Part shown: positions 40,534-60,707 of the stretch, piece after piece
Numbering within the stretch: the stretch's first letter is position 1
Layout: every line of letters starts with the position of its first letter
From: Oscillospiraceae bacterium
GTDB taxonomy: Bacteria > Bacillota > Clostridia > Oscillospirales > Ruminococcaceae
DNA length: 64,000 nt
Direction: 5' to 3'
Assembly (NCBI GenBank): GCA_017533485.1
Contig: JAFXIC010000046.1
Location: 216-64,215, forward strand
Translations under genes and position numbers: made by a program
Notes under the pieces: generated by a model
Databases searched by the model: none
Told to the model about the DNA's origin: nothing
The model's input: only the letters and a program-made list of their open reading frames with translations

Positions 40534-40998
40534 ATGAATCTTGAGATTCGGATTGCGGAGAAGACGGCGGCTTTACAGGGGAGTCCGCAGATTATCTGCG
40601 GCAACAGCGACTATACGCTGACCTTTTTCTTCGACAGCGAGTGGGATGCATATCCCGTAAAAACCGCACGATTTGTGTATTTCCAAAACGGAATCGCAGT
40701 GCATCAGGATGTTCTCTTCGAGGGTGATACGGTGACGGTACCGGTGCTGCATGGCGTCTATGAGGTTGCAGTTGGCGTATATGCCGGCGATATCCATACG
40801 ACCACACCGGCCCGTATCAGCTGTGTACCGTCAATTACCTGCGGCAGCTCGCCGCATGACGCACCGTCACAGGATGTGTATGATCAGCTGATGGCATACT
40901 TAGCGAGCATCCGCAACGGCAATTTCGTGGATGCACAGCGTCTTGCCGCTGTCTGCACAGGGAAGACGGTAATTTCAATTGCACAACAGGAGGAATGA
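40534..40998 (+). CDS. hypothetical beta-rich protein, possibly phage baseplate/fibre accessory (BppU-N-like)
   Basis: RBS AAAGGAG. Pattern ...VTVPVLHGVYEVAVGVYAGDIHTTTPARISCVPSI resembles Ig-like phage tail accessory domains; weak. Confidence 0.3.
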   Translation: MNLEIRIAEKTAALQGSPQIICGNSDYTLTFFFDSEWDAYPVKTARFVYFQNGIAVHQDVLFEGDTVTVPVLHGVYEVAVGVYAGDIHTTTPARISCVPSITCGSSPHDAPSQDVYDQLMAYLASIRNGNFVDAQRLAAVCTGKTVISIAQQEE

Positions 40999-41001
40999 GA
41001 G

Positions 41002-41661
41002 ATGGCAATGACAAAGGAATATATCGGATATCATTTTGACGCGGACTTTCTGGCGTGGCTTCGCAGTCATCTTATCCCCGAATATGTGGACAGCATCGAG
41101 GTCAGCGCGGACGGTACTTCCTATCAGATGCTGCGCGGCGGCAATCAGATTGCGAAAATTACAGCGACGGATTGGACGCTCTATCCCACATCCCAAACGA
41201 CGCCAAGCCAGTCGGCAATGGCAAATGTCGGCAGTCAGGTTTATGGGTATGCCGGTCAGAATGCGATCGCAATCTGTTACCGCGGTTATGGCAGTGCGGC
41301 GAAAAACAATCAGAGTCTTGTGCTTTTTACGCATGATAACCATGGCGGGGCTGTCGTACTTATGGCGATGCGGCTGTCCGAGAATTCTACCGGCGCGACA
41401 TTGTTCTCTCAGACAGCTACGACATACCTCATGCGCTTACAGACTTCGGAAATCAATACCGTCACATCGCTTCAATTGAAGTATAATTCCGGTTCTGTGA
41501 GCTGTCTTTGTCCGTTTGTGCTCAATACCGAGGAGCCGGAAATTTTTTATACGCCCGATGTCTTCTGGTGTCCGGTCTATCAGCATTCTGCGATCGGTAC
41601 GCTGCTGATTGACGGCGCACGGTATTTTACGTTCGGACCATGGATGGTGAAGGACGCGTAA
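41002..41661 (+). CDS. hypothetical protein (partner of 40534 gene)
   Basis: Starts 4 nt after the previous stop; 219 aa; no recognisable motif. Confidence 0.4.
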   Translation: MAMTKEYIGYHFDADFLAWLRSHLIPEYVDSIEVSADGTSYQMLRGGNQIAKITATDWTLYPTSQTTPSQSAMANVGSQVYGYAGQNAIAICYRGYGSAAKNNQSLVLFTHDNHGGAVVLMAMRLSENSTGATLFSQTATTYLMRLQTSEINTVTSLQLKYNSGSVSCLCPFVLNTEEPEIFYTPDVFWCPVYQHSAIGTLLIDGARYFTFGPWMVKDA

Positions 41662-46614: not shown

Positions 46615-47850
46615 ATGCGAAATGTGTGTACTACAATGAAAAAGATAATCCCTGCGATCGTAAGCACTGTGCTTGCGCTGACGGGAGCGGTTTCTTTCCC
46701 TGCATCCGCAGCGGAAACAATGCGCGCGGAGCTGACCGGCGTCAGCTTCACCGACTCCGAAACCCTTGCCGCGCTGGTCTATGAAACACAAGCCGGCAAC
46801 TGTAATCTTTATGAAGACGAAGACCATACCATTCCGGCAATTCTGCCGCTCGATTCCGTCTACTCCACCAGCCAGAAATTCTATCTGCTCTGCGGCACAA
46901 GTCCGATGAAAACATGGGGCAAACAATGCTATATCTATGCACAGGGTGTGTTTGCCCATCTCTTTGATGAAATGCCCGCACATGGGCCGGAAAATAGTTA
47001 CAGCTTTCACCACTGTATCAGCGTTATGGGCTCCAGCCCCGAAGTCTCCTTCAGCCAGTTCCTCGACAGCCGTGTCATGCCGGGCGCTTATCTGCGCACA
47101 ACAAATCAAGCCGACGGAAAATATTCCGGAAGCGCCGGCCATTCCCTTATCATCCTCGGCTATAATCAGGATTCTGTCACAATTCAAGAGGGCAATGCAT
47201 TCGGCGGCGGCGAAATCCGTCTGGCAACCATGGACTGGGATCGCTTCAACCGCTCCTTCCTCTCCGGAAAAGGAAGATATGTTTCGCATATCGTTCAGCC
47301 GCGCGAGGACTATTATCTCAGTCAGTTCGGTCTTTCTTATGACTTCTCGAAGGAAAATCAGCAGGTTTCCTATGAGCCGGAGCAGCTCCTGCTCCGAAGA
47401 CTGGGCAGCGGTCTGCGGCTCTCTCTCCCAACAACCGCAAAGCCCGATGACTATGTCTGGACCAGCAGCGATGAGCAGATCGCAACGGTTGATCCCTCCG
47501 GCAATGTCACCGTACACGAGGACGGCAATGTGACCATTCAGGCAGAAGATGCGAATGCGATCTATTCCTTTGATGTCACAGTCGATGCTGTGAAATGGGA
47601 AAAGATCGGGGATGTGGACGGAAACGGTACGATCAATTGTGACGATTCCACCGCGATCCTCCTGACCTATCTCAATGACATGATGGAAGGCTCTGATGTG
47701 AGCGCGGAGGAGTTCGCACTCTACGATATCGACAATGACGGCAATATCACTGCGGATGACGCGACACTCGTTCTGTATTACTACCTCAGCAATGCGATGA
47801 GCGGGGGGGCGCTTGATGCGGAAACACTTTGGAAAGAAATTCTTGCTTGA
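46615..47850 (+). CDS. secreted dockerin protein with papain-like Cys/His domain and Big_2-like domain
   Basis: Signal peptide ..MKKIIPAIVSTVLALTGAVSFPASAAE. Candidate catalytic GKQCYIYAQGVF and AGHSLIILGY...QEGN. Ig-like VWTSSDEQIATVDPSGNVTVHEDGNVTI. Dockerin GDVDGNGTINCDD...DIDNDGNITADD. Confidence 0.7.
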   Translation: MRNVCTTMKKIIPAIVSTVLALTGAVSFPASAAETMRAELTGVSFTDSETLAALVYETQAGNCNLYEDEDHTIPAILPLDSVYSTSQKFYLLCGTSPMKTWGKQCYIYAQGVFAHLFDEMPAHGPENSYSFHHCISVMGSSPEVSFSQFLDSRVMPGAYLRTTNQADGKYSGSAGHSLIILGYNQDSVTIQEGNAFGGGEIRLATMDWDRFNRSFLSGKGRYVSHIVQPREDYYLSQFGLSYDFSKENQQVSYEPEQLLLRRLGSGLRLSLPTTAKPDDYVWTSSDEQIATVDPSGNVTVHEDGNVTIQAEDANAIYSFDVTVDAVKWEKIGDVDGNGTINCDDSTAILLTYLNDMMEGSDVSAEEFALYDIDNDGNITADDATLVLYYYLSNAMSGGALDAETLWKEILA

Positions 47851-47967: not shown

Positions 47968-48780
47968 ATGATAGATCTGCATATGCACAGCAGTTGTTCG
48001 GACGGTCAGCACTCCCCTGAAAAACTCGTGGAAATTGCGGAAACATATGGGATTACCCATCTCGCGCTGACCGATCATGACACCATCAGCGGACTTTCTG
48101 CGGCTCGTACTGCTGCGCAAAAACACGGAATCCGGTTCCTATGCGGCATCGAAATCAGCACGAATGTCCGCCATCAGCATATTCTGGGACTCGGGGTCTC
48201 TCCGGCGTCCGATGTGCTCAGGGATGCCTGTGAACAATTCGAACAGCGCCGCATCAAGCGGATGCACGGGATTCTCGATGCACTCAACGGGCTTGGGATT
48301 GCGCTCGATCCCGAACAGGTCACACGCTATGCGTCCGGTCAGGTCGGAAAACCCCATATTGCACGCGCGATGATGGACAAGGGGTATGTTTCTTCGGTTT
48401 CGGAAGCATTCGAAAAGTACCTGAGTCTGCCTCCGGTGCGTGCGGTCAAGGATTCCAAGATTTCGGATGCGGATGCGATTGCGCTGATCCACGCTGCCGG
48501 CGGACACGCCATTCTTGCGCATCCGCTGGAGCTTTCGGATTCGATGGATGCGATCGTAGAACGGATGGACTGTCTGCGCGATATGGGGCTTGACGGCGTT
48601 GAGGCGTTCTATCGTACCCATACACCTGAGCAATGTGCGTTTTTCTCTGCCTATGCCGAGCGGTATGGGCTGATTGTGACCGGCGGTTCGGATTACCACG
48701 GCGAGCTGATAAAACCGGATGTGCTTCCGGGCATCCCGCCCTACCCGCAGATCTTATCCCAGACTGCGCTTTGCTGGTAA
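47968..48780 (+). CDS. PHP-domain phosphoesterase (TrpH/YciV-like)
   Basis: ATG 47968 after GGAAGGAGA. MIDLHMHSSCSDGQHSP...LALTDHDT; 270 aa. Confidence 0.85.
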   Translation: MIDLHMHSSCSDGQHSPEKLVEIAETYGITHLALTDHDTISGLSAARTAAQKHGIRFLCGIEISTNVRHQHILGLGVSPASDVLRDACEQFEQRRIKRMHGILDALNGLGIALDPEQVTRYASGQVGKPHIARAMMDKGYVSSVSEAFEKYLSLPPVRAVKDSKISDADAIALIHAAGGHAILAHPLELSDSMDAIVERMDCLRDMGLDGVEAFYRTHTPEQCAFFSAYAERYGLIVTGGSDYHGELIKPDVLPGIPPYPQILSQTALCW

Positions 48781-48799
48781 TCCTCTATTCCCATATATA

Positions 48800-49463
48800 C
48801 AAAAACAGAGGGAAAGCCTTCCTGCTTTCCCTCATGTTCGTTATTCAATTGTAAAGCGCCCAAAATGACTCTATATCAGACCGCAAGGGTCGTAAAGGGA
48901 GCATCCGCTCCAAAAGGGGATGTTTTTTCTTTTATTTCCCATTACGCCATTGACACGAGAGTTTTGTCATTCTTTTTTCGGGTGCGGCAAAATCTATCTG
49001 CCGCGTCTGATGCACTCTGCATTTGGCCCCTACATATCGCAAACCCATTGGTCCACGGTTCTTACTGTGCGGCTTCCATATCGGAATGCAAGTTGCATCG
49101 CGGCGAAATCAAATCAACCGTTCAGTCGATCCTTGCGTTATGCACAGAAGAAGCTGTTTTCGAGCCTGCATCAATGGACGGGACGCTTGTTTCCGTATCC
49201 ATGGGACTCACACAACCTTTCCGATTCAGTTTTTCGGCGGAGGGATCTGCTTTCGTGCCGTCTGCAATACAGCGCAGACTCTGATGCGAGACTGCGGAGG
49301 CAGCCGGGAGAAACGCCGCCGGGATTCTTCAGGATTCCATGCAAACCTTGCGTGAATCATCAGCGCAACGGATGCTGCGTTGAATCCGAAGCATAGTATA
49401 CGCTGATACCCTAATTCACGTATTCCCCTTCGGATCTGTGAGGGATGTCTTGCTGTATCCTGT
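48800..49463 (-). ncRNA. candidate ~660-nt structured non-coding RNA (family unassigned)
   Basis: Consensus promoter immediately upstream and a hairpin plus U-tract at the 3' end. No RBS-preceded ORF on either strand, and the minus strand is full of stops. Includes a 10-bp long-range helix 49327-49337 / 49382-49391 enclosing smaller hairpins. Confidence 0.4.
48808..48833. terminator. bidirectional hairpin terminator, with the better U-tract on the minus strand
   Basis: GAGGGAAAGC (48808-48817) / GCTTTCCCTC (48824-48833). The minus strand continues TGTTTTTGT; the plus strand continues ATGTTCGTT. Confidence 0.7.
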
Positions 49464-49469
49464 GATTGT

Positions 49470-49498
49470 ATTATAGCACATATTCCTACAAATGTCAA
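49470..49498 (-). promoter_or_regulatory. consensus sigma-A promoter driving the candidate ncRNA
   Basis: Minus strand TTGACA (49498-49493), 17-nt spacer, TGC-TATAAT (49475-49470). Confidence 0.7.
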
Positions 49499-49543
49499 GA
49501 GGTTTTTGAAAAATTTTATGAGAAATTTTCAAAAGATTAGGGC

Positions 49544-49572
49544 TTGACATTTCGAAAAAAATAAGGTACAAT
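49544..49572 (+). promoter_or_regulatory. sigma-A promoter of DUF1292 gene
   Basis: TTGACA (49544-49549), 17-nt spacer, TACAAT (49567-49572). Confidence 0.7.
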
Positions 49573-49646
49573 ATACCCAGCGAATATCATGTTCGCAATA
49601 ATCAGCCCAAAGCTTCCCCGCTTTGGCAGAACGGAGTTAAGATACT

Positions 49647-50009
49647 ATGCTGGATCACAATGCTGAAAATGCACAGGATGAAATGATGGAAGATTTTGAA
49701 CCGGATCTCTATACCCTCGTGGATGAGGACGGCAACGAAAAGCTCTTTGAGCTCGTGGATGTGCTGGAGGAGGGCGATAAGGCTTACTTTGCGCTGATTC
49801 CTCATGTCGAGAATCCCGAAGAACTGCTCGAAGAATGTGAACTCGCTGTTCTTTCTGTCGTGAAGGATGATAAGGGCAACGAAATCCTTACACCCGTCGA
49901 GAGCGATGAAGAATATGAGCGGATCGCAAATCTCTTTATCGAACGCCTCGAAGAAGACTGTGACTGCGGCTGTGAAGATGATGACTGCGGCTGCCATCAC
50001 CACGACTGA
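49647..50009 (+). CDS. DUF1292-family acidic protein with Cys/His-rich tail
   Basis: LYTLVDEDGNEKLFELVDVLEEGDKAYFALIP is typical of DUF1292; C-terminus CDCGCEDDDCGCHHHD. Confidence 0.8.
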   Translation: MLDHNAENAQDEMMEDFEPDLYTLVDEDGNEKLFELVDVLEEGDKAYFALIPHVENPEELLEECELAVLSVVKDDKGNEILTPVESDEEYERIANLFIERLEEDCDCGCEDDDCGCHHHD

Positions 50010-50121
50010 TACACCGACAAGCGCTGACACGCTTTGGCAAAATCTCTCAGGAAATTCCGGTTGATTTTCTGGAGCGATGGGTGTATACTACTATCATCAG
50101 CCTTTTCATTTGATTTCTGCC

Positions 50122-50150
50122 TTGTTCGACCAAGTCCGATATGATATAAT
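50122..50150 (+). promoter_or_regulatory. sigma-A promoter with extended -10
   Basis: TTGTTC (50122-50127), 17-nt spacer, TGA-TATAAT (50145-50150). Confidence 0.55.
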
Positions 50151-50156
50151 CCAACA

Positions 50157-50362
50157 CTTCATATCAGGGAATCTTGGCTCTGCGCGTGGATTGCAGACCT
50201 CCCGCTTTCTCCGGTTCCGGAGCGATGCGGACGAAGGGAGCGTGAAAGGCGCAGGCGGATACCCACCTGCTTTGTGCGGGTTTTATGCGTCGGACGACGG
50301 CAAGGCGGAGCTTGAATATTTACGCGGATGCGGCAACTCGTTTTGCTGCATCCGCTTTTTTG
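50157..50362 (+). ncRNA. ~200-nt promoter-to-terminator unit (candidate sRNA or first leader segment of the phage-like operon)
   Basis: No RBS-preceded ORF. Internal helices include CTCCC..GGGAG (50209-50250 region) and GCAGG..CCTGC. Ends at terminator 50324-50362. Confidence 0.3.
50324..50362 (+). terminator. intrinsic terminator T1
   Basis: 13-bp arms 50324-50336 / 50343-50355 (one G-U pair) followed by T6. Confidence 0.8.
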
Positions 50363-50435: not shown

Positions 50436-50462
50436 GAAACTTGTATCCCGGAATACAAGAAA
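50436..50462 (+). promoter_or_regulatory. 27-nt conserved element, copy B
   Basis: GAAACTTGTATCCCGGAATACAAGAAA; 20 of 27 positions match copy A at 40450-40476, with identical length and flanks. An extra inverted half-site TCCGGATACAAGTT sits at 50376-50389. Confidence 0.5.
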
Positions 50463-50504
50463 ACGCCGCTTTTGCCATATGGGTGAAGGCGGCGTTTCTT
50501 CTCC
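50462..50504 (+). terminator. terminator-like hairpin T2 in the terS leader
   Basis: AACGCCGCT / GGCGGCGTT arms followed by TTCTTCTCC; about 70 nt upstream of the terS ATG. Confidence 0.5.
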
Positions 50505-50572
50505 GCGGAGTGCCGCCGGGATTCCCCCCCACACACATAGATTCACAAAATGTTCGAAAGGTGGTTTTCAGA

Positions 50573-51127
50573 ATGACGGATACTGCGCGTTCCGAAACAC
50601 GGATTGCAGCACTGCGGCGGAAGAATTTCTGTCGCTACTACCTGCTGCTCGGCAACCCGACCGAAGCGGCGCTCCAAGCCGGTTTTGCACCGGAGAAGGC
50701 TGCGGAGGAAGCCCTCGCGCTCCTCCAGAATCACAGCTGTCGTGCGTACCTCGCAAAACTTGCCGCACAGCCCGCACTTCCGATTCAGACGCTTGTTCTT
50801 TCGGGGCTGAGCCGGCTTGCGTTCGGTTCGGCAAAGGATGCCGTAAAACTTGTGTTCTCGGAAGAAATGCCCTCGGACGAAATGCTTTCGCGTCTCGACC
50901 TTTTTCAGGTTGCTGAGCTGAAGCGCGTCAAGGGCGGCGGCGTTGAAATAAAACTCTTCGACCGCCAGAAAGCGCTCGAACGGCTGCTGGAATGTGCGAT
51001 GTCGGCAGATTCTTCTGCTGCCGCAAATGCGCTCCTTTCCGCCCTGAGCATTCCGCAGGAGGAGGCGAATGCACTTGACGATGATGAAGCCGACGCGCTT
51101 CTCCCAAAAACAACGGCGCGTTCTTAA
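50573..51127 (+). CDS. phage terminase small subunit (XtmA/Terminase_2-like)
   Basis: ATG 50573 after GAAAGGTGG. RYYLLLGNPTEAALQAGFAPEKAAEEALALLQN is an HTH-like motif typical of this family; overlaps terL. Confidence 0.7.
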   Translation: MTDTARSETRIAALRRKNFCRYYLLLGNPTEAALQAGFAPEKAAEEALALLQNHSCRAYLAKLAAQPALPIQTLVLSGLSRLAFGSAKDAVKLVFSEEMPSDEMLSRLDLFQVAELKRVKGGGVEIKLFDRQKALERLLECAMSADSSAAANALLSALSIPQEEANALDDDEADALLPKTTARS

Positions 51128-52346
51128 CTGGTGGATGCAGCCCGAAACAATGCACTATGACGCGATTATCTGTGACGGTGCGATTCGTTCGGGAAAAACC
51201 ACTGCGCTTGCGCTCGGATTTGTCATCTGGGGCTGTACGAGATTTGACCGCCAGAGCTTTGCGCTTTGCGGAAAAACCGTCACCTCGCTCCGCCGCAATC
51301 TTGTGACACCCCTCATCGCACAACTCTCTCTCCTTGGCTTTCAGGTCGAGGAAAAGGTCAGCAAGGCTTATCTCGATATCTCCTTCGGCAACCATCGGAA
51401 TCGGTTTTACTGTTTCGGCGGTAAGGACGAGGGCTCGGCTGCCCTGATTCAGGGGATTACGCTGGCTGGAGTTCTGATGGATGAGGTGGCGCTGATGCCG
51501 AAGTCCTTCGTCGAACAAGCACTCGCTCGTTGTTCTGTACCGCGCTCAAAGATGTGGTTTTCCTGTAACCCCGATAAGCCGTCCCATTGGTTTTATCGGG
51601 AATGGATTCTGATGGCGAAGCAGAAAAACGCCCTCTATCTGCATTTCACCATGGAAGACAATGCAGCGTTGACACCTGAAATCCGTGCGCGGTATGAACG
51701 GATGTATGACGGCGCATTTTATGACCGCTATGTGAAGGGGCTATGGGTGGCATCACAGGGGCTTGTCTATCCGATGTTCTCGCCGAGTAAGCATATCGCA
51801 GAACCGCCTGCACCCTGCGAACGGTATGTGATTTCCTGCGACTATGGTACAATGAACCCGACATCCTTCGGACTCTGGGGACTCAGCGAAGGCTGCTGGT
51901 ACCGGTTTGCGGAATCCTATTATGACGCTCGGAAAGCAGGTGTGCCGAAAACCGACGAGGAGCATTATCTTGCCCTCGAAGCACTCGCAAAAGACTATCC
52001 GATTGAACAGATTGTGATCGACCCTTCGGCTGCAAGCTTTATCGCCTGTATCCGAAAACACGGACGCTATGTGGTGGTACCGGCAAAGAATGATGTGCTC
52101 GCCGGAATCCATCGCGTTGCAGACGCGATTCGTGCGGAGAAAATCCGCATCGGTGCGGCGTGTCAGGATGCGCTGCGTGAATTCTCCCTCTATGCATGGG
52201 ATGCGCACGCGGGCTCGGACGCGCCTGTGAAGGAACATGACCACGCGATGGACGATATCCGCTATTTCGTGAGTACGGTTCTGGATTCTGAGGAGCGCAC
52301 GGGCTTTTATGTCACCTCGCTCTCCCGCACCGATGCAGCAAACTGA
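51069..52346 (+). CDS. phage terminase large subunit (PBSX/XtmB family)
   Basis: RBS AGGAGGAGG. Walker A ICDGAIRSGKTTAL; Walker B-like GVLMDEV; C-terminal nuclease-type acidic motifs (ISCDYG, HDHAMDDIRY). Confidence 0.85.
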   Translation: MHLTMMKPTRFSQKQRRVLNWWMQPETMHYDAIICDGAIRSGKTTALALGFVIWGCTRFDRQSFALCGKTVTSLRRNLVTPLIAQLSLLGFQVEEKVSKAYLDISFGNHRNRFYCFGGKDEGSAALIQGITLAGVLMDEVALMPKSFVEQALARCSVPRSKMWFSCNPDKPSHWFYREWILMAKQKNALYLHFTMEDNAALTPEIRARYERMYDGAFYDRYVKGLWVASQGLVYPMFSPSKHIAEPPAPCERYVISCDYGTMNPTSFGLWGLSEGCWYRFAESYYDARKAGVPKTDEEHYLALEALAKDYPIEQIVIDPSAASFIACIRKHGRYVVVPAKNDVLAGIHRVADAIRAEKIRIGAACQDALREFSLYAWDAHAGSDAPVKEHDHAMDDIRYFVSTVLDSEERTGFYVTSLSRTDAAN

Positions 52347-52362
52347 AAGGAGGTTTTTGATT

Positions 52363-53559
52363 TTGCGATTCCCCATTCCTCCCAAGAAACAGCGTGCAGC
52401 AGACTTACCGTCGGTTCCGATGCTGCTGGCGCCCAAACGCACCGCGCCAACGCATACGGCAGAAAATCTGCCGCTGCGGACGCCGCCGCCTCCGTCACCT
52501 GCGGAGTGGAAGCTCTATGACGCGCTGCGGTATGCGGTGCCGGTCGTGGACGCTGCACTCCATAAGATTGTGCGGCTCTGCGGCGGATTCCGGCTGACGG
52601 CTCAGACCCCCGAAGCACAGGCGGTTCTGGATGCGTTTTCGGAGAATGTTCCGGTGAATGCGGCAGGCTGTTCCCTCCAGTCTTTTGCGGATCAGATGCT
52701 CGATGCACTGCTGACCTACGGAAATGCAGTCGGTGAGCTGATTTGCGACGCACAGAGCGGTATGCCGCAGGGACTTGTGACTGCGCATCCGTCCATGCTC
52801 GAAATTTGTCCCGATACGCCGGTTTCCTGTCGGTATTATCTCCGCGGCACGGATGAAGCAAAGCGTCAGCCGCTTGCACATCCCGAACGAATTCTGTTCG
52901 CGGCACTTTCTCCTCCGCCCTCCGGCATTTATGGTGTATCGGTATTGCGCGGTCTTCCGGCACTTTCCAAAATCCTGCTTCGGATTTACGAATGTGTCGG
53001 TCAGAACTATGACCGCGCCGGAAATGTCCGCTATGCGGTTACCTATCACCCCGATGCGAATGCCGCAGCGTTCGCACAGTCCCACGCAAAGGAAATCAGT
53101 GATGCCTGGAAACATGGCATTCAGGCGGCTTCCTATGGCGAGGTTCAGGACTTTGTTGCGGTCGGCGATATCGACATCAAGGTGATTGGTGCCGAAAACC
53201 AGCTCTTCGATACGAATGTGCCGGTGCGCCAGCTCCTGGAGCAGATCGTCTCGAAACTCTCTATTCCGCCGTTCCTGCTGGGATTTTCGTGGTCCACAAC
53301 AGAACGGATGTCTACCCAGCAGGCAGATATTCTCACTTCCGAGCTGGAATATTTCCGCAGACTCCTTTCCCCGATTCTCCGGAAAATCGGAAATGCCGTT
53401 CTCCATAGCGCCGGCTTTTCCGAATCGGTTCAGGTCGCTTGGGACAGCATCAATCTTCAGGATGAAACGGAGCTTGCGGAAGCACGCCTGAAAAATGCGC
53501 AGGCAAAGCAAATCGAACAGCAGCTGGATGCGTCCGGCTGTCAGTCCCCCGAATCATGA
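52363..53559 (+). CDS. phage portal protein (probable)
   Basis: Position immediately after terL; ~400 aa. Start uncertain: TTG 52363 lies 9 nt after GAAAGGAGG, and ATG 52333/52309 are alternatives. Confidence 0.6.
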   Translation: MRFPIPPKKQRAADLPSVPMLLAPKRTAPTHTAENLPLRTPPPPSPAEWKLYDALRYAVPVVDAALHKIVRLCGGFRLTAQTPEAQAVLDAFSENVPVNAAGCSLQSFADQMLDALLTYGNAVGELICDAQSGMPQGLVTAHPSMLEICPDTPVSCRYYLRGTDEAKRQPLAHPERILFAALSPPPSGIYGVSVLRGLPALSKILLRIYECVGQNYDRAGNVRYAVTYHPDANAAAFAQSHAKEISDAWKHGIQAASYGEVQDFVAVGDIDIKVIGAENQLFDTNVPVRQLLEQIVSKLSIPPFLLGFSWSTTERMSTQQADILTSELEYFRRLLSPILRKIGNAVLHSAGFSESVQVAWDSINLQDETELAEARLKNAQAKQIEQQLDASGCQSPES

Positions 53560-53575
53560 AAGGAGCAGTAGGATT

Positions 53576-54544
53576 ATGTACGATTCTGTAAAACTCGAAA
53601 AAGGTATGTACCATCTCGCCAATCAGTCTTTTCTGGATGCGCTGGAGCACGCCGACCCGTCCGAACAGTATCTGGGTACGCCGCTTGCATCGCTGGACGC
53701 GTTCGAGCGTCAGCTCAAGCGTTTCGATATCCACCTCAGCGGTGAACACTGCGATAAGGTCGAGAAATTCTTCTCCACCACCGAGAGCGCAGTCCTTTTC
53801 CCTGAATTCGTCCGCAGAGCCGTGAAGCAGGGTATGGAGGAATCCATTCTGCCGGAGCTTTGTGCGGCGGTCACGAAAACCAATGGCACTTCCTATAAGG
53901 GCTTTGCCATCGACGAGGCGGACGGCGCATATTCCGAGACGGTCGAACAGGGTGAGTCGCTGAAAATCACTGCGCTGACCGAGGCGGAGACTGCCATCGT
54001 CCTCGAAAAGTATGGCAGAGTCATTACCGCATCCTATGAGATCGTCCGTCAGCAGCGTATTGATGTGTTCGCGGTTATGCTGCGCGCCATCGGTCATAAG
54101 CTTGCGGGGGCGATCGCCGGTGCGGCACTCGCGAAGCTCGGTACTGCGCTGACGCCCCTTACCCTCAGCGGCAGTACCCTCGCATATGCAGATCTTGCGG
54201 CACTGTACGGCGAGTTCTCTGACTATGATATGACCACCGTGATCGCCTCTCCGAAGAATGTTGCCGCAATCCTCGCGATGGATGAGATGGCTGACCATAC
54301 AACCGATGCGGACGGTACGATCCGTCTTCCGTTCGGCGCAAAGCTCCTCAAGGATTCTTCGCTTTCCGATACAACCATTATCGGTATCGCAAAGGATTTC
54401 GCACTCGAATGCGTAACCGGTTCGGATGTGCTCCTCGAAACCGACCAGCTGATTAACTGTCAGCTCGATCGGATCGCAGTATCTGTGCGTGTGGGCTTCC
54501 AGCCGCTGATGGAGGGTGCCGCAGCTTCGATCGACTGGACATAA
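53576..54544 (+). CDS. HK97-fold major capsid protein (probable)
   Basis: ATG 53576 after AAAGGAG; 322 aa. Pattern LEKYGRVITASYEIVRQQRIDVFAVMLRAIGHKLA and the C-terminal beta-rich region resemble Phage_capsid family members. Followed by a G/C-rich hairpin. Confidence 0.55.
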   Translation: MYDSVKLEKGMYHLANQSFLDALEHADPSEQYLGTPLASLDAFERQLKRFDIHLSGEHCDKVEKFFSTTESAVLFPEFVRRAVKQGMEESILPELCAAVTKTNGTSYKGFAIDEADGAYSETVEQGESLKITALTEAETAIVLEKYGRVITASYEIVRQQRIDVFAVMLRAIGHKLAGAIAGAALAKLGTALTPLTLSGSTLAYADLAALYGEFSDYDMTTVIASPKNVAAILAMDEMADHTTDADGTIRLPFGAKLLKDSSLSDTTIIGIAKDFALECVTGSDVLLETDQLINCQLDRIAVSVRVGFQPLMEGAAASIDWT

Positions 54545-54653
54545 TACCGCAGGGGTGCGGGGGGGACCTCGGATTGGGTTCCCCCCATCCGCTCTCCCCG
54601 ATTTTTCCGGCTTTTTTATGCCTTGAATATCATCCGAACGATATGGAGGGATT

Positions 54654-55595
54654 ATGATGCAAAAGAATGATTCCGAGATGCTTGCGGCACTGAATCACTT
54701 CACGCGCCGTGCGCATACGCTCGAAGAGGTCTATCTCTTTGACCTGATTCTCTGTGACAATGAAATTGACCGTGACGGGGATTGTTTCTCCGAACAGGCA
54801 CTCAAAGCGATGCAGAAGCTGTTTGTCGGCGTCACGGGGATCTTCGACCATAACTTAAAATCCGGCAATCAGACTGCCCGTATTTTCCGCACAGAGGTTC
54901 TGACGGATGCTTCGCGCCGGACAAAGACCGGTCAGCCCTATCAGTATCTGAAGGCAAATGCCTATATGGTGCGGACGAACGCGAATGCCGACCTCATCCG
55001 CGAGATTGATGCCGGAATCAAAAAGGAGGCCAGTATCTCCTGTGCCGCGTCCGAACAGATCTGTTCGATTTGCGGTACGAACCGGCTGAAACAGCACTGT
55101 GGGCATATCAAGGGCCGCTCGTATCAGGGTGCGCTCTGCTATACCACACTCGACGGGATTTCCGATGCATACGAATGGAGCTTCGTCGCGGTACCGGCAC
55201 AAAAATATGCCGGCGTTACGAAAACACTCGGCGGAAGCACAGCCGCACAGCCCGAAACCAAGATGCTGGAACGTGCGCTGGAGGCTGCGAGCGGTACACT
55301 CGATAAGCTGACGGACGCGCTGAGAAAGGATGTCATCCGACTCTGTTACCGCGGCGGAGAAACTGCCTGTGCGAAGGCGCTGGCGGATTCCACGATTCAT
55401 ATGGACGCGGAAGCCCTCTTAAAGCTGCGCCAGAGTCTTCTGATCGGCGCACAGGCACAGTCAGAGCGTGAAGCCGCCGCCGCAAAGGCGAACTCTCAGC
55501 TCTATCCGCAGAAAAATGCTGCCTCCGCATCCGAACCGCTGCCTGCAATGGACGAATTCCGGATGCACCGCAAAAAGGAAGGGGACGCGAGATGA
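54654..55595 (+). CDS. XkdF-like prohead protease with C-terminal scaffold-like coiled coil (probable)
   Basis: CDNEIDRDGDCFSEQALKAMQKLF...GIFDHN resembles the XkdF/S78-type protease N-terminus. The C-terminal ~120 aa are Ala/Glu/Leu-rich. Confidence 0.5.
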   Translation: MMQKNDSEMLAALNHFTRRAHTLEEVYLFDLILCDNEIDRDGDCFSEQALKAMQKLFVGVTGIFDHNLKSGNQTARIFRTEVLTDASRRTKTGQPYQYLKANAYMVRTNANADLIREIDAGIKKEASISCAASEQICSICGTNRLKQHCGHIKGRSYQGALCYTTLDGISDAYEWSFVAVPAQKYAGVTKTLGGSTAAQPETKMLERALEAASGTLDKLTDALRKDVIRLCYRGGETACAKALADSTIHMDAEALLKLRQSLLIGAQAQSEREAAAAKANSQLYPQKNAASASEPLPAMDEFRMHRKKEGDAR

Positions 55596-55945
55596 ATACA
55601 GCACTGGCAATGCGATTGTTTGTGTTATTCGCCGGTCTTTCCGATGGTACCGAGTATCAGGCGCTCCTGGATGCGGCGGCAGAGGAGGTAAGCGGCGAGC
55701 TTTTGCCGGAGGCGGATGCGAATGACCGCCGCCTCAGCTATTATTGTGCCGCAATCGCCCATCTGCGCTATGTCCAGATGCTTGCCGCACGCAGCGAGCT
55801 GTCCCATACCTATGCCGGTACGGTTGCAAAACAAAAGGACGCAACCGTACCCTGTGGATTTGCGGAGCGGCTGGTCTGTCAGTACCGCAATGCGGCGGCT
55901 GATCTCTTAAAAGACCGCTGCTTTGTCTTTACGGGCATCGCCTGA
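55592..55945 (+). CDS. head-tail connector (gp6-like) candidate
   Basis: 117 aa; ATGA overlap with the previous gene; size and position fit, motif recognition is weak. Confidence 0.4.
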   Translation: MNTALAMRLFVLFAGLSDGTEYQALLDAAAEEVSGELLPEADANDRRLSYYCAAIAHLRYVQMLAARSELSHTYAGTVAKQKDATVPCGFAERLVCQYRNAAADLLKDRCFVFTGIA

Positions 55946-55991
55946 ATCCACGGACGAGAAATTATCTGAACAAAGGGGGGGACAGCCGATT

Positions 55992-56426
55992 ATGGCATAT
56001 TACGCAACATTTCTGAATCAGATCGTGACCATGCTCCGGGAACGCGGTGTGGACGCAGACCTCGAATATCCGCGCAAGTCACTTTCTGTCCATGCATCCG
56101 GACGCTACCTGACCATCGGGCTGGAGTCCGCGGAATATCAGCCCGCACTCGCATACCGGGATGGGCTTGCATTCCCCGTGACACTGCATCTGCGCCTGCG
56201 GATGCACCAGAATCCGACGAAGAATGTACAGGCACTTTCTGCACTTTATGAAGCGGTTGTGCTGCCGGCATTCGTGGATGCGGGGTATGATCTGCGGAGC
56301 ATGAAGCTCCATAGCCCCGAATATGACAGGTCGCTGGATCGAATGGTGATGCGGGCGGACTGTATGCTGCATGGCTATGTGGTGAAAACGGCATCAGCGG
56401 CGGAAACGGAGCGTGAGGAAGTATGA
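55992..56426 (+). CDS. phage head-completion / hypothetical protein
   Basis: ATG 55992 after AAGGGGGGG; 144 aa; call based on synteny only. Confidence 0.4.
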   Translation: MAYYATFLNQIVTMLRERGVDADLEYPRKSLSVHASGRYLTIGLESAEYQPALAYRDGLAFPVTLHLRLRMHQNPTKNVQALSALYEAVVLPAFVDAGYDLRSMKLHSPEYDRSLDRMVMRADCMLHGYVVKTASAAETEREEV

Positions 56427-56809
56427 CGAATCTGATGACAGCGGAAGATAAGCTGCGGCTGAAGCTGGGGACGCTGGAGCTGACGGCGGACAGCTACCGT
56501 ATGGAGCTGCACCGTCCGACACGCCGACAGACGCTTGTGGACGGACGCTTCCGGGAAACGATGCTGGATGTCGAACCATGCGTGCTGCGGATTGAGAGCC
56601 GTGTGATTTCCGCTGATGCTGCCGCGCTGAAAGCGGCGATCCGGACGGCAATCCATGAGAATACGGTCTTTTCGTTTTCCTTCGACAGAATGCGCTTTAC
56701 GGAGATGACGATCCGGGATATTCTTTTCTGCCGGTCGGAAAACCAACAGTATATGACCTTGACGCTGACGCTCGGCGGAACATTCTCCGGAGAGGAGGAT
56801 GATGTGTGA
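56423..56809 (+). CDS. phage-associated hypothetical protein
   Basis: ATGA overlap at both ends; 128 aa. Confidence 0.4.
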   Translation: MTNLMTAEDKLRLKLGTLELTADSYRMELHRPTRRQTLVDGRFRETMLDVEPCVLRIESRVISADAAALKAAIRTAIHENTVFSFSFDRMRFTEMTIRDILFCRSENQQYMTLTLTLGGTFSGEEDDV

Positions 56810-57741
56810 TGCCGACAGCAGTCCTGACGCTTTATGCGGCAGACGGAAGTTTCGTGACGCAAACAGATTGTGCGGCATTTTCTCTTTTAAAGGAGCGGTA
56901 TCTGCCGTATGATACATTCCATGCGGTGTATTGTCTGACGGAGGAACGTCTGCCGCAGCCGCCGGTGCGTGCGGTCTTTACACTGGATGGTGTGAAGCTG
57001 CACGACGGGATTGTACGCAGCGTAAAAGCGGAACGCCGGAATCATCTCACACAGCTGACGCTCACCTCGCGCGGTTATACGGAATCGCTGATGCAGAATC
57101 AGATGGTACCGGGGCTGTATACGGATGTCACACTCGATTCACTGATGACAACCTACGCGCTGCCGCATATCACATACGAAAGCGGATTGTCCGCGTCAAA
57201 TTATATCTATGTCAAAGCAAATACGGCGATGTGGGATGCACTGTCCGCGTTTTGCTATAAGTATAACCGTTCTCTGCCGTATGTGACGCGCTGTAATCAT
57301 CTGCGGCTGAGCGCGAAACCGGAGGATGCGGCAATCCTTCTGCCTGCGGAAGGCTTGCTGCGGTATTCCGAGGACGGGGACGCTTCAACCATCATCAGCC
57401 GTATCGACATGGCAGATATCGACGGAACCTACGGGCAGTTCACCTGTACCAACGAAAAAGCTGCGGAACGTCAGATTGTTCGTGTGAAACAGATGCTGTT
57501 TGACCGCCAGTTTCTCTATCAGCCCGAGGACGCACTGCGTTACCGGATCGCGTACAGCAATCGGAAGCTGATCGGAAAAACAGTTTCCTACTGCGGCTAC
57601 TGCGGCGAGGATATCGAGGACATGGTGGAGCTTTCGGGCGTGCTTCGCGGTCATGTCAGCCGGATACTGCTTCGGGGAAACGAAAACGGGCTCGAAACAA
57701 CGGATACACTCTATTTCGACAGCTTCTGCAATGTCGGCTGA
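56806..57741 (+). CDS. phage-associated protein, possibly XkdQ/gpD-like hub
   Basis: 311 aa. Pattern FTLDGVKLHDGIVRSV......LTLTSRGYTESL loosely resembles XkdQ/late-control-D proteins; weak. Confidence 0.35.
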   Translation: MMPTAVLTLYAADGSFVTQTDCAAFSLLKERYLPYDTFHAVYCLTEERLPQPPVRAVFTLDGVKLHDGIVRSVKAERRNHLTQLTLTSRGYTESLMQNQMVPGLYTDVTLDSLMTTYALPHITYESGLSASNYIYVKANTAMWDALSAFCYKYNRSLPYVTRCNHLRLSAKPEDAAILLPAEGLLRYSEDGDASTIISRIDMADIDGTYGQFTCTNEKAAERQIVRVKQMLFDRQFLYQPEDALRYRIAYSNRKLIGKTVSYCGYCGEDIEDMVELSGVLRGHVSRILLRGNENGLETTDTLYFDSFCNVG

Positions 57742-57754
57742 GGGTACGGAATCC

Positions 57755-57804
57755 ATCTGCCTTTTCCGGGAACACATACGCGGAGAAGGCAGATTGTTTT
57801 TTTT
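57755..57804 (+). terminator. intrinsic terminator closing the phage-like module
   Basis: ATCTGCCTT (57755-57763) / AAGGCAGAT (57786-57794) followed by TGTTTTTTTT. Confidence 0.8.
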
Positions 57805-57834
57805 CGGAAAAATATGGAGAATTTGAAAATTTGC

Positions 57835-57863
57835 TTGACATCTTGACCATTTTATGCTATGAT
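57835..57863 (+). promoter_or_regulatory. sigma-A promoter
   Basis: TTGACA (57835-57840), 17-nt spacer, TATGAT (57858-57863). Confidence 0.65.
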
Positions 57864-57940
57864 AATAAAAATCACAAAATCTATGCTGTCATAGGATATC
57901 TTTTTCGGACAGTTTGAATAGTATGAATGGAGGCATATGG

Positions 57941-58822
57941 ATGTTTCAATCGAGCGATTGCGGATATGATGACGCAGCATTGACTGCGCGCGGAGAATCT
58001 TTGGATGCGCTGTTACAGGAAGCGCATATCTCGGAACAGGATAAACAGAATGCCTTAATGGAGTATCTGGAGCTGCTGCACAGCAAGCGTGCCGCAAAAG
58101 TCGGTGTAGAATTTGCCGAGCGGCTGATGGATCGTGTGTATCAGGCGTTTCTTGCACATCCGACCTCGGAGGTGGCAGTAGACCTGCTGTATAACTGTCT
58201 GCTGGTTCAGCAGTTCCATGCGATGAATTTCGACCAATGGCGGTCGCATCCCTCAATTGTGAAGTGTGAAAATGCGCTGGCGTCGCTCGAAGCAGACGGC
58301 AGATTATCGGACTGTTTCCGTTTTTGTCAGGAGACTGCGGCGACCTATGCTGACGCAAGATTCTGGCCGGAGGCACTGCGTTATGCGACGCGTGCGCACG
58401 GTTACAGCAAGCAGCTCATCCAGAAAAAGATTACGGTTCTGGAAAATGACGAGATGCTGGATTTGCGGGATACCGCCTGTCTGATCTGCGAGTATGCGCT
58501 GCATACGGCAGAGGGGCTGACGGAGCGGCTGGAAGCAATGCTGCAGTCGGATCTGGGCGCAGAGAATTTCGCGTTCGTCCTTCAGGAAGCACAGGATAAT
58601 GTGGATGATATTATCGTGGATCCCGTGGAGTTCACACCCGAATATCTTGCCATCCGGTATGAGCTGGAAGAAAAGATTGATGACGCGCTGGAGCATCAGC
58701 GTGGGTATTATGAATATTGTAAGGATTATTGGATGGCAAAGCGGCTGATTCTTCGTTCGGAGTTCGGTATTTCATGGAAATCGCCTGCCGCGCTGAATCC
58801 GAACATGGATTTTGACGGATAA
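57941..58822 (+). CDS. hypothetical cytoplasmic alpha-helical protein
   Basis: ATG 57941, 7 nt after GGAGG; 293 aa; no recognisable motif. Confidence 0.5.
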   Translation: MFQSSDCGYDDAALTARGESLDALLQEAHISEQDKQNALMEYLELLHSKRAAKVGVEFAERLMDRVYQAFLAHPTSEVAVDLLYNCLLVQQFHAMNFDQWRSHPSIVKCENALASLEADGRLSDCFRFCQETAATYADARFWPEALRYATRAHGYSKQLIQKKITVLENDEMLDLRDTACLICEYALHTAEGLTERLEAMLQSDLGAENFAFVLQEAQDNVDDIIVDPVEFTPEYLAIRYELEEKIDDALEHQRGYYEYCKDYWMAKRLILRSEFGISWKSPAALNPNMDFDG

Positions 58823-58835
58823 AAAATGGATAAAA

Positions 58836-58878
58836 AACGCTGTCGGCTCAATAGAGAGCTGACAGCGTTTTTGTTTGA
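58836..58878. terminator. bidirectional intrinsic terminator
   Basis: 14-nt arms 58836-58849 / 58857-58870 (one G-U pair), with an A-run upstream and a T-run downstream. Confidence 0.8.
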
Positions 58879-58995
58879 AAGAAAAGATTGTTTTGTGGTG
58901 AGGAACGATGCGACTCGTTCTATGCCTGCCCCAAAGAGTCGTGTACGGATCGTGCGAGCGTGCCGGACAGACGTATGAAAAAGCTGAGCCGAATT

Positions 58996-59646
58996 TCAGA
59001 TTTCCTTGCGAAGCGATTTGGCATACTTGAGGTTCTCGGCGTTATACCCGAAGCGTGCATTGGTACAGCGGTTCGCAATTTCATTGCAGGCATTTTCGAA
59101 AACTGCCGCATTGCGTTTTCCGACCTTAAACGGATAGTCAAACGAGTCGCCGTATTCATCCCATGCCACGAGAAAGATGCCGTCTAAGATTCCGTTGGTA
59201 CGGTGTTCTTTTTTATAGAGCAGACGGACGGATTCATAGGGCATAAAGCTTTCAAAATTGTTCACGGCAAGCAGAAAGCGGTCGGAAACAAGCACCTGCT
59301 TGCTGTCGATGAGATTATTGAAAGCGGCCTCGGAAATCTCCGCAGCCAGTTCATCAGGCGAGCCGTATTTCCGGAATACCTTGCAGTTTGCAACGTCCTT
59401 CAGTATGACCAGCTTTGCGATAAAGAGTGCGCCGCCGCCGATGAGGAGTGCGGCACCGACCAGCATCATGAGGATGGCGCTGGCATAGTCGTGGTTATTC
59501 CGGACATTGGCAACTGCCGCGAGGATCACGACGACACCGAGCACCCACAGTAAAACTCCGCCAAATGCGCTGGCGAGATTGGCGTTCCGGATTTTTTTCA
59601 CCATCTGTTTTCCGGTCAGAAAAGCGAGTTTGGACATCTTTTGCAC
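58996..59646 (-). CDS. hypothetical two-TM membrane protein with cytoplasmic C-domain
   Basis: TMs FGGVLLWVLGVVVILAAV and ILMMLVGAALLIGGGALFIAKLV; 216 aa; last gene of the aspS2 operon. Confidence 0.55.
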   Translation of the reverse strand: MQKMSKLAFLTGKQMVKKIRNANLASAFGGVLLWVLGVVVILAAVANVRNNHDYASAILMMLVGAALLIGGGALFIAKLVILKDVANCKVFRKYGSPDELAAEISEAAFNNLIDSKQVLVSDRFLLAVNNFESFMPYESVRLLYKKEHRTNGILDGIFLVAWDEYGDSFDYPFKVGKRNAAVFENACNEIANRCTNARFGYNAENLKYAKSLRKEI

Positions 59647-59666
59647 ATCCTTTCTGTCGGAAAACT

Positions 59667-60707
59667 TCAGGCTTCGGGCTGTTTGAAGCCGAGCTGTTCA
59701 TCAATACGTGTCAGGATTTCCTTAAATTTCGGTTCGCGCGTCAGGTCATAGGCAACGCGGTAGAACAGCCCCTCCAGCTCCGGACGATTGTATTCATGCG
59801 CCTGTTCGCCGAGTTTGATGGCGAGCTCCACGATATTGTCATTGGGGGGCGGCTGGATGCCGTATTTCTCGTAGGTATCGAGCACCTGACCATTCGTCGG
59901 CGGATTGAATTTCTGACCGAGTGCCTTCATGTGCTTGACAACATCCTGCAATTCCAGTTCGACAGCCTTGCTGGGGCTGAAGCGGACGCTTTCGAAGTAG
60001 AAGACTGCCGCCGAGAAATAATCTCCGACCATATTACAGTAGTATCCCATATTGCAGAGTGCTCTTGCGATACGGTCCGCGGAGGTGCAGACGCGCAGTG
60101 TATCGAGATTGACGTTCATCAGCGATTTTGCATCGCCGCCGAATTTACAGATTTCTGCAAGCTCGAAGCGGAAGTCTGCATTCACCGGATTGAATGCGAT
60201 GCCGCGCTCGACCGCCTTTGCCGCAGCAGGGAGATTCCGCTGTTCGAGGAGCACATAGCCATAGATGGTGAGGTAATGTGCGAAATCGAACGGTGCGCGT
60301 TCAAATTCGGTCATCGTGGGGTAGTAGGTGCGGAACAGGTGGTATTCAAACGGATTGCGGAAGCTGAACCATTTGATATCGCCCTGTTCGAAGTGTTCAT
60401 GGATTTTATCGGAGATTTCGGAAAGGAGTGCCTCTGCTTCGTTCATCTTATCTTCTGAGATGTACTGGAGTGCGACGCTGAAAGCCTTATCCATCCGCAT
60501 ATCACGGACGAAGGTGGCTTCGAGCATATACTTTTTCTGTTCATCGGGTAAGAGCTTGAACGCATAGTCAGCGAGAACGGAGAGAAGCTCCTCGGCATTC
60601 TCCTCTTTTTTGAGTGTATCGGAGAGCGTATGGATATAATGGATATCCGCCTGGGGATCGCCGGTCATTTCGCCCTCGATTTGTTGCAACAGTTCATCTG
60701 CGGTCAT
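59667..60707 (-). CDS. hypothetical TPR-like helical-repeat protein
   Basis: 346 aa, all-helical repeat character; 37 nt downstream of aspS2. Confidence 0.5.
   Translation of the reverse strand: MTADELLQQIEGEMTGDPQADIHYIHTLSDTLKKEENAEELLSVLADYAFKLLPDEQKKYMLEATFVRDMRMDKAFSVALQYISEDKMNEAEALLSEISDKIHEHFEQGDIKWFSFRNPFEYHLFRTYYPTMTEFERAPFDFAHYLTIYGYVLLEQRNLPAAAKAVERGIAFNPVNADFRFELAEICKFGGDAKSLMNVNLDTLRVCTSADRIARALCNMGYYCNMVGDYFSAAVFYFESVRFSPSKAVELELQDVVKHMKALGQKFNPPTNGQVLDTYEKYGIQPPPNDNIVELAIKLGEQAHEYNRPELEGLFYRVAYDLTREPKFKEILTRIDEQLGFKQPEA

Follow-up and report, generated by a model that had tools for sequence, protein, structure and literature searches.

What fills the 866 bp between the PHP gene (47935/47968-48780) and the DUF1292 gene (49647-50009), both on the plus strand, in a 64,000-nucleotide stretch of an Oscillospiraceae contig (JAFXIC010000046.1, positions 216 to 64,215; hereafter the window, whose own numbering is used)? 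An earlier note, made from the letters, had proposed that the minus strand of this gap specifies an independently transcribed, structured RNA of about 0.66 kb that belongs to no recognisable family. Our results agree with this proposal. Full-length copies of the unit occur in 27 loci, so that it is conserved beyond this strain, its helices covary, and it has no match in Rfam. Together with a conserved promoter and terminator and with insertions and deletions that are not multiples of three, these observations support the reading of a large structured RNA. From the sequence comparisons, it is quite likely that the gap RNA represents a new large structured RNA family of an Oscillospiraceae clade, with a function exerted at the RNA level.

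The minus-strand promoter, which the note had described as a perfect TTGACA-17-TGcTATAAT, is a sigma-70-type site with an extended -10 element (49498-49470; TTGACA at 49498-49493, a 17-nt spacer, TG at 49478-49477 and TATAAT at 49475-49470). It scores 12/12, the top site of a promoter scan over 3 kb, and is kept in every copy, with TTGACA-N17-(TG)nTATAAT present in each family member. Promoter spacing places the predicted transcription start at about A49463. At the other end lies an intrinsic terminator, whose 10-bp stem with six G-C pairs (48833-48808, minus strand) is followed by a U-run (48807-48799). The tail reads TGTTTTTGT on the minus strand (to 48799) and ATGTTCGTTA on the plus strand; the U-tract therefore favours the minus strand, as had been claimed. 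The hairpin is also usable by the convergent PHP gene. A terminator with compensatory changes in its stem is found in all family members. The whole predicted transcript thus extends over 48799-49463 of the minus strand, about 665 nt, and is present as a single copy in the window; a profile search for full-length matches placed the RNA unit in its 27 loci as about 20 distinct sequences of 614-824 nt.

The statement that the gap lacks a credible gene holds for protein families. Three plus-strand open reading frames (ORFs) overlap one another in all three frames (48865-49284, 48920-49396 and 49023-49355), as had been seen, and neither these nor a 90-aa minus-strand ORF matches Pfam. The latter starts at the TTG of the -35 hexamer and therefore lies outside the predicted transcript. 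The plus-strand stretch devoid of stop codons is also real: it runs for 274 nt (49011-49284), a length matched in 0 of 300 dinucleotide shuffles. A plus-strand gene in this run was considered and rejected, since the position and frame of the run are not kept in relatives. The RNA strand, in the window (48799-49463) and in the family, has fewer UUA, CUA and UCA triplets than its dinucleotides predict (9-23 observed versus 19-30 expected), with counts below expectation in all 16 family sequences. This depletion leaves long stop-free stretches on the antisense strand and explains the three overlapping ORFs of the window as well as a 114-aa antisense 'gene' that was called in a relative (locus L086, 991-1335); the RNA family thus accounts for spurious gene calls in the gap. 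Nor does the element as a whole evolve like a coding sequence. In a 16-sequence alignment, short invariant blocks are split by indels of many lengths, from 1 to 37 nt, that are not multiples of three; the element has no Pfam match, and no ORF longer than 30 codons is conserved across it. Fold energy is nearly equal on the two strands (z = -3.6 for minus and -3.5 for plus relative to shuffles) and therefore does not by itself pick a strand. G-U pairs, however, outnumber A-C combinations (49 versus 16), which points to the minus strand of the window as the strand that folds.

Relatives were reached through homologues of the PHP protein and then through scans of representative genomes and metagenomes with the DUF1292 protein. 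Seven contigs carry an identical DUF1292 protein and an intergenic region that is 99.7-99.9% identical; these belong to the same species and are uninformative. In L008-L014 the PHP protein is 64-65% identical and is followed by genes for proteins of 220 aa and 155 aa, and the RNA is not adjacent to PHP. In L015, where PHP is 55% identical, the DUF1292 gene lies 890 bp from it and the spacer is homologous over its whole length to the window interval (nhmmer, E=2e-53). The nucleotide identity there is about 63% versus 55% for the flanking PHP protein, which supports conservation of the RNA. In L015 the RNA and DUF1292 share an inversion relative to the window, so that it is DUF1292, and not PHP, with which the element travels. 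Of 13 loci that the DUF1292 protein revealed in representative genomes, 11 have the element; the metagenome scan added six more full-length copies, and eight further DUF1292 orthologues all have it (8/8). In all 27 loci that carry the RNA, it lies upstream of, and divergent from, a DUF1292 orthologue. By nhmmer, it was not found next to DUF1292 genes of 52% identity or less (L037-L080). Directly downstream of DUF1292, the window and all eight relatives tested have a 6S RNA gene. The large RNA, DUF1292 and 6S RNA form a conserved three-part module. Named source records of the hosts are Oscillospiraceae or "Ruminococcus" metagenome-assembled genomes from the gut of horse, sheep, goat, buffalo and roe deer. 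The proximity to phage genes, offered in the note as a clue, proved incidental, as relatives without phage-like genes keep the RNA and its constant neighbours are DUF1292 and 6S RNA.

The core of the RNA is a central domain (Domain III) of 230-355 nt in the family, closed by three stacked long-range helices, P1, P2 and P3, and holding the hairpins P3c and P4. All are on the minus strand. The 5' strand of P1 (UCCCGUCCAUUGAUGC, 49168-49183) pairs with 48956-48937 over 16 bp, closing a domain of about 250 nt; the 3' strand (48937-48956) reads GUGUCAAUGG-CGUA-AUGGGA. P2 joins GGCUC (49162-49166), in which the GGCU positions are invariant, to GGGCC (49025-49029), which is GAGCC in close relatives. 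Independent minimum free energy (MFE) folds of most members find the partner GAGCC or AGCC, and 90% of the P2 cells in the alignment pair. P3 is formed by UUCUUCUGUGC (49142-49152) and GCACAG.AAGAA (49070-49059), P3c by UUCC-GAUAU-GGAA (49086-49074) and P4 by CGUGGACC-AAUG-GGUUUGCG (49057-49038).

Full-length MAFFT alignment with RNAalifold recovered four helices only, with the variable regions misaligned; subgroup alignments, single folds and concatenated segments did better. We worked with the conserved columns of alignments A3 and A4, the latter consisting of concatenated conserved segments chosen by the analyst. In A4, 87.2% of the cells of P1, P2, P3c and P4 are standard pairs, compared with 33.9-48.9% after a shift of the partners by 1-3 columns. 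In these helices, 16 pairs have changed on both sides (6-12 in the slid controls), their covariation score is 0.359 (at most 0.145 when slid), and none of 500 shuffles reaches any of these measures. Changes on both sides affect 7 of the 8 pairs of P4. For P1, at least four versions of unrelated sequence are found, each of them fully compensated, namely CCAUUGAYG/CRUCAAUGG in most members, GAUCUCC/GGAGAUU in L019 and L020, GCGGUCGGC/GCCGAUCGU in L082 and CGGUUUCCG/CGGAAACCG in L086. The most divergent members, L085 and L086, build the same helices from strands of unrelated sequence. P3 was judged by duplex prediction, because MAFFT set its 3' strand one column off between subgroups; RNAduplex placed the partner at +71 to +111 nt in 16 of 16 sequences, with at least five compensated versions (for example CUCUGUGU/ACACAGAG, CUCUGUAU/AUGCAGAG, CUUUCGUGCG/CGCACGAAA and CCUGUCUG/CAGACAGG). 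When P1 is forced, the MFE is equal to, or at most 1 kcal/mol from, the global minimum in 10 of 14 full-length sequences, and within 0.7 kcal/mol in the window. Folds of single sequences, made without any alignment, give the same plan in almost every one of the 16 homologues, with hairpins of variable length decorating the conserved core.

In Domain I (49330-49462, minus), CAGGAU (49462-49457) and CAGCAA (49455-49450) pair with AUCCUG (49335-49330) and UUGC (49344-49341), enclosing internal hairpins. Across the family, the pairing partner of the first 10-20 nt lies 50-130 nt downstream, and the closing helix, CAGGAU/AUCCUG in the window, becomes CAAGGUA/UACCUUG, AUAAGAACA/UGUUCUUAU or AGAAAGUGAACAUG/CAUGUUAUCUUUC in relatives. 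The interior pairings quoted in the earlier note all exist, that is CUUCGGAUUC (49391-49382) with GAAUCCUGAAG (49337-49327), CAACG-N7-CGUUG and GCAA-N3-UUGC. The first of them competes with the 5'-end helix of CAGGAU (49462-49457) and AUCCUG (49335-49330), and it is the latter that relatives conserve. Domain II and the most conserved linker follow (49198-49321, minus), with CGGCGGCGUUUCUCC at 49321-49307, GAAAGG at 49221-49216, GUGAG at 49211-49207 and GAGUCCCAUGGA at 49209-49198. The last contains an invariant AUG, and the linker GAG.CC.AUGGA is almost invariant. In most relatives GGAAAGG..GCGUG pairs with an upstream CAUGCGGCGUUUCC to form a helix, P0, that closes Domain II. The 3' domain (48841-48911, minus) consists of the hairpins GGAGCGGAUGCUCC (48911-48898) and GACC-CUUGC-GGUC (48891-48879) and of the blocks UGAUAUAGAGUCA (48878-48866) and the near-invariant AAUUGAAUAA (48850-48841). 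Hairpins in this region are present in every member and the blocks are conserved in alignments A1 and A3. The motif A(A/C)(U/C)UGAAUA, of which AAUUGAAUAA is the window version, precedes the terminator hairpin by a few bases in every member; most folds leave it single-stranded, and no consistent pairing partner for it was found across the family folds. A pairing of the 3' AAUUGAAUA with the P1 3' strand, in an attenuator-like scheme of four segments, was tried and rejected: the complementarity exists in some members, and the changes in L019 and L020 are not followed.

One part of the earlier description did not hold, namely that the interval is free of ORFs. A short ORF (49202-49122, minus; MDTETSVPSIDAGSKTASSVHNARID) starts with the AUG of the linker, runs for 26 codons to a UGA, and overlaps the 5' strands of P1, P2 and P3, and its position is conserved. 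Every member has such an ORF, 20-26 codons long, beginning at the invariant AUG. In the 19 distinct sequences compared, the distance from the AUG to UCUGUG is 57, 60 or 69 nt, always a multiple of three, and none has an in-frame stop, whereas scattered stops occur in 9 of 19 in frame +1 and in 15 of 19 in frame +2. Shuffled sequence remains open with a probability of only about 0.43.

These features raise the possibility that the transcript is the messenger RNA of a micropeptide of 20-26 residues, with long structured 5' and 3' untranslated parts that control translation or stability. Besides the invariant AUG, with a purine-rich GAAAGG upstream, and a frame that is open in 19 of 19 sequences, there is an apparent peptide pattern, M[DE]xxExxPx[IV][DG]xGS..SV; in L086 shifts of -1 and -2 restore the frame; and synonymous differences are somewhat enriched in frame (180/1001 versus about 100/1000 off-frame). 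The conserved 'residues', however, are covarying strands: codons 7-12 (P-x-I-D) are the P1 5' strand, codons 13-14 (G-S) are P2 and codons 18-20 (S-V) are P3. Some third codon positions are invariant where first and second positions vary, and neither the place of the stop codon nor the C-terminus is constant. The purine-rich GAAAGG, 13 nt away from the AUG, takes part in base pairs in most members, about 90% of the RNA that is conserved and covaries falls outside the ORF, and there is neither a Pfam match nor a linked modifying or export gene. L086 is the most telling case, as its helices and RNA motifs stay (counted from the AUG, GGCUC has moved by -1 and UCUGUG by -3) and its peptide (MDTEQFSVRFPAAHTWLSVMR) is unrelated. 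Since the conserved codons are helix strands and the L086 peptide is unrelated, RNA pairing explains most of the sequence conservation of the ORF. The conserved micropeptide M[DE]xxExxPxIDxGS..SV was therefore downgraded as a candidate, and we find it unlikely that the RNA is chiefly a peptide messenger. RNA pairing leaves unexplained the constant length in multiples of three, the uninterrupted frame and the fixed AUGG, which itself never changes and whose partners change only to wobble pairs. Judging from these patterns, selection probably keeps the frame open and does not act on the peptide sequence.

If ribosomes engage the ORF of the structured RNA, it would be the act of translation that matters and not the product. 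The segment GAG.CC.AUGG is complementary to CCAUUG..GGCUC of the P1 and P2 5' strands, and so mimics their distal 3' strands. In 14 of 17 sequences this local hairpin can be imposed at a cost of 0-5.3 kcal/mol (0.6 in the window), and it is the global MFE in some members; in these folding models it is a plausible second conformer, and the RNA probably alternates between two folds. The ORF spans exactly the 5' strands of P1-P3, the AUG lies in the sole long single-stranded conserved linker and a near-isoenergetic hairpin can sequester it; this geometry suggests that a ribosome on the ORF and a closed domain exclude each other. It is conceivable, though doubtful, that the RNA works as a switch gated by translation, of a size without precedent. 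The ribosome would start at the invariant AUG and read the ORF of 20-26 codons, conserved only in its start, openness and length. While translating, it would cover the 5' strands of P1, P2 and P3 and thereby keep the central domain of 230-355 nt from closing, or open it again. Under slow translation, the domain would close or the AUG would be trapped in the alternative local hairpin. The RNA could in this way signal the translational capacity of the cell to a partner, working beside the DUF1292 protein encoded next to it and 6S RNA, the reporter of RNA polymerase status.

Such an arrangement resembles leader-peptide attenuators and translation-coupled switches, in which a short ORF lies over mutually exclusive pairings and its product is unimportant; the pairings in question would here involve the AUG segment together with the 5' strand of P1/P2 and the distal 3' strands of these helices. 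The window RNA differs in being 5-10 times larger, in having no regulated downstream gene and no run of regulatory codons, and in that its competing strands are about 250 nt apart. Dual-function RNAs offer a second comparison. RNAIII of Staphylococcus (514 nt) encodes the 26-residue delta-haemolysin, and SR1 of Bacillus is likewise a dual-function RNA. Like these, the window RNA is long, structured and independently transcribed, with a short ORF of about 20-40 codons. Their peptide is conserved and functional, however, and exposed loops regulate their targets, whereas the window ORF consists of helix strands, its peptide is not conserved in L086, and there is no homology.

Several observations weigh against a large structured RNA as read here, or against parts of it. 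About 20 distinct sequences were available, all related and from one clade, so that the shuffle control can overstate significance, and the segments of A4 were selected by the analyst. The transcript, its ends and its abundance are read from sequence signals alone. Helix P0 and the details of Domain I are not clear in the window RNA itself, and the alternative hairpin shows almost no covariation. The ORF is always open, which keeps a coding role in consideration. Finally, L030 (JAEEGL010125043.1, 1-1640) has a DUF1292 protein that is 71% identical and lacks the promoter and the RNA upstream of it; an unrelated hairpin-rich sequence fills the space. By this comparison, the RNA appears to have been lost or relocated in L030, and would be dispensable or movable.

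Could the RNA instead be a divergent member of a class already described, such as OLE, ROOL, GOLLD, HEARO/omega-RNA, RNase P RNA, transfer-messenger RNA (tmRNA) or an ORF-less group II intron? Size, a strong promoter, a Clostridia host, a rumen or gut origin and an ornate architecture resemble those of such RNAs, and the resemblance drawn in the earlier note to OLE, ROOL, GOLLD and HEARO holds in kind; homology in sequence or structure was not detected. A scan of the whole window with cmscan at gathering thresholds found only 6S RNA (50111-50315). A permissive scan of 48700-49650 with all 4227 Rfam 15 families at E<=10 returned noise only (eukaryotic microRNA and small nucleolar RNA models, E>0.4), so that no family matches the interval, and in eight diverse relative loci at E<=0.5 only the neighbouring 6S was found. 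At these thresholds the OLE and ROOL models have no match in the interval or the relatives. Genes of the oapA/oapB type are not among the neighbours, which are PHP, DUF1292, 6S and, in relatives, variable housekeeping genes. For GOLLD there was no model match, no transfer RNA in the window and no phage linkage by blastn or by a core-motif scan: blastn in distant mode against 50,697 phage records gave no match, and a 19-base core motif was not found in the viral contigs scanned. HEARO/IscB omega-RNA gave no model match, and no IscB/HNH nuclease gene was called in the loci examined. Nor did an ORF-less group II intron model match at E<=10, and no reverse transcriptase is among the called genes of these loci.

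The RNase P and tmRNA signatures that the note had failed to see were likewise not found. No Rfam model of RNase P matches; as for its conserved P4 elements (GAGGAAAGUCC, ACAGAA..GGCUUA), GGAAAGG..GAGUCC and CACAGAA do occur in the RNA, in an order and context that differ from RNase P, and the likeness is superficial. ARAGORN detected no transfer RNA or tmRNA in the window, and the short ORF does not behave as in tmRNA, since it starts with AUG, its C-terminus is not conserved and the 3' end of the RNA is an intrinsic terminator. With these results, membership of a described class seems very improbable. What was found is what is expected of a large structured non-coding RNA, namely a compensated structure on a defined strand with a conserved promoter and terminator of its own.

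A cis-acting role has about as little in its favour. The RNA could be a long leader or riboswitch of a downstream gene, or could serve the convergent PHP gene through antisense pairing or termination; a same-strand PHP gene does follow it in L015, L019, L020 and L081, and the window terminator is shared with PHP. The gene past the RNA terminator differs among loci, however (PHP, glycyl-tRNA ligase, a 184-aa membrane protein and others), and is convergent in the window, so that no constant downstream gene of the same unit was found. Since a strong terminator stands in every locus and the gene beyond it is variable or convergent, a cis-leader role was set aside. Several relatives have a promoter-like site of their own after the terminator, before the next gene. 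In L008-L014 the RNA is not adjacent to PHP at all, and in the window it ends, at about 48799, short of the PHP stop codon at 48780, with no overlap between transcript and coding sequence. These points leave a cis element hardly probable. That the gap is a decayed gene or mobile-element remnant with chance promoter- and terminator-like sites is the least credible explanation and is in effect refuted, since the overlapping plus-frame ORFs and the adjoining phage-like module that suggest it stand against end-to-end conservation, with promoter, terminator and compensated helices, among genomes in which the flanking proteins share only 55-65% identity, a single copy, and no Pfam or phage match. 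A pseudogene of the 220-aa and 155-aa genes seen in L008 and L012 was rejected in particular, as tblastn places their homologues elsewhere in the window (40534-41661) and not in the interval.

As to what the structured RNA does, its promoter and surroundings give some indications. A promoter of the type used for rRNA and 6S RNA suggests that the RNA is abundant, and promoter type and neighbourhood together suggest that it acts in trans, in a structural or regulatory role. It probably has a protein partner, for which DUF1292, as the constant neighbour, is the obvious candidate. 6S RNA is similar in being an abundant-type housekeeping RNA with a sigma-70 promoter, in the same three-gene module, and different in being about 190 nt long and a single, bulged, open-promoter-like helix; the window RNA is 3-4 times larger, multi-domain and without a match to the 6S model.

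OLE, ROOL and GOLLD are large 'ornate' bacterial non-coding RNAs with functions that are known in part or not at all; ROOL and GOLLD are often linked to phages or transfer RNAs, and OLE to oap genes. The window RNA is like them in its size class of 600-800 nt, its own strong promoter and terminator, its many helices including long-range ones, its variable peripheral hairpins on a conserved core and its narrow range (Firmicutes or rumen samples), and in that no protein is needed to explain its conservation. It differs in being chromosomal and linked to DUF1292 and 6S RNA, in matching none of their models, in lacking oap genes and in the absence of its motif from the viral contigs scanned. An invariant AUG with an always-open ORF over the 5' strands of the main helices is, to our knowledge, not a described feature of these RNAs. 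In the literature searched, no paper links DUF1292 or this taxon to such a non-coding RNA, and none describes the RNA. The family is previously undescribed; what is new is the family and its unusual embedded ORF, and what is known is the kind, a large structured bacterial RNA. Very few bacterial RNAs longer than about 500 nt have a conserved, intricate fold; the list comprises rRNAs, RNase P, self-splicing introns, OLE, GOLLD, ROOL and a handful more. Such large RNAs have each given new RNA biology, the latest being RNA-only cages (PMC12286853). The present family, in a fixed module with 6S RNA and the widespread DUF1292/UPF0473, provides a first functional lead for that protein family. The long-range helices of its central domain, rebuilt several times from unrelated sequences, make a clear structural target, and an always-open, non-conserved ORF lying over these helices turns ribosome remodelling of a large non-coding RNA into a directly testable question.

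The constant neighbour, the DUF1292 unit (49544-50009, plus), has a divergent promoter, TTGACA-17-TACAAT (49544-49572), ahead of its gene (49647-50009). A 45-bp A/T-rich spacer (49499-49543) separates the two divergent -35 boxes (TGTCAA ... TTGACA) and contains the inverted repeat TTTTGAAAAATT/AAATTTTCAAAA (49504-49515 and 49523-49534); the divergent spacer of L015 is alike, rich in TTTTCA..GAAA. The spacer could hold shared UP elements or an operator that co-regulates the RNA and DUF1292. DUF1292 proteins of the window subgroup end in a tail rich in Cys, His and Asp, CDCGCEDDDCGCHHHD, which is suggestive of metal binding. In the other subgroups (orthologues in L015-L026 compared) the tail is purely acidic, for example EDEDEDGAAE, and the RNA is kept with both kinds of tail. 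A stretch of 10 nt that the RNA shares with the start region of DUF1292 was put down to chance, being same-sense, not complementary, and not seen in aligned relatives. The 6S RNA gene (50111-50315, plus; Rfam RF00013, 68.8 bits) lies about 100 nt downstream of DUF1292 and is followed by a terminator at 50324-50355; it may be co-transcribed with DUF1292 or may use a weak promoter-like site at 50061-50089.

Beyond 6S RNA, a phage-like head and packaging module (50441-62600, plus) extends as far as the gene for the 184-aa membrane protein (62633-63184, minus). It encodes a terminase small subunit (50441-51127), a terminase large subunit (51069-52346), a portal (52309-53559) and a major head protein (53495-54544), all on the plus strand, along with further ORFs. 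In L015 and L081 the 184-aa gene comes next after DUF1292, about 0.4-0.7 kb away, and the module of about 12 kb therefore resembles an insertion beside the 6S gene, which may be what is left of a prophage or an element akin to a gene-transfer agent. Relative to L015, both PHP and the 184-aa gene are inverted; the neighbourhood has been rearranged repeatedly, with the RNA-DUF1292-6S unit intact. Upstream, a gene pair without a Pfam match (40534-41661, plus) corresponds to 6164-7293 in L008 and 6207-7333 in L012, where the 155-aa proteins are 73% identical and those of 219-220 aa are 42-43% identical; the pair is beside PHP in these relatives and about 7 kb from it in the window. Closer to PHP, a 411-aa protein (46615-47850, plus) combines a Big_2 domain with a type I dockerin, pointing to a fibre-degrading host of the cellulosome type, consistent with the rumen or hindgut origin of the relatives.

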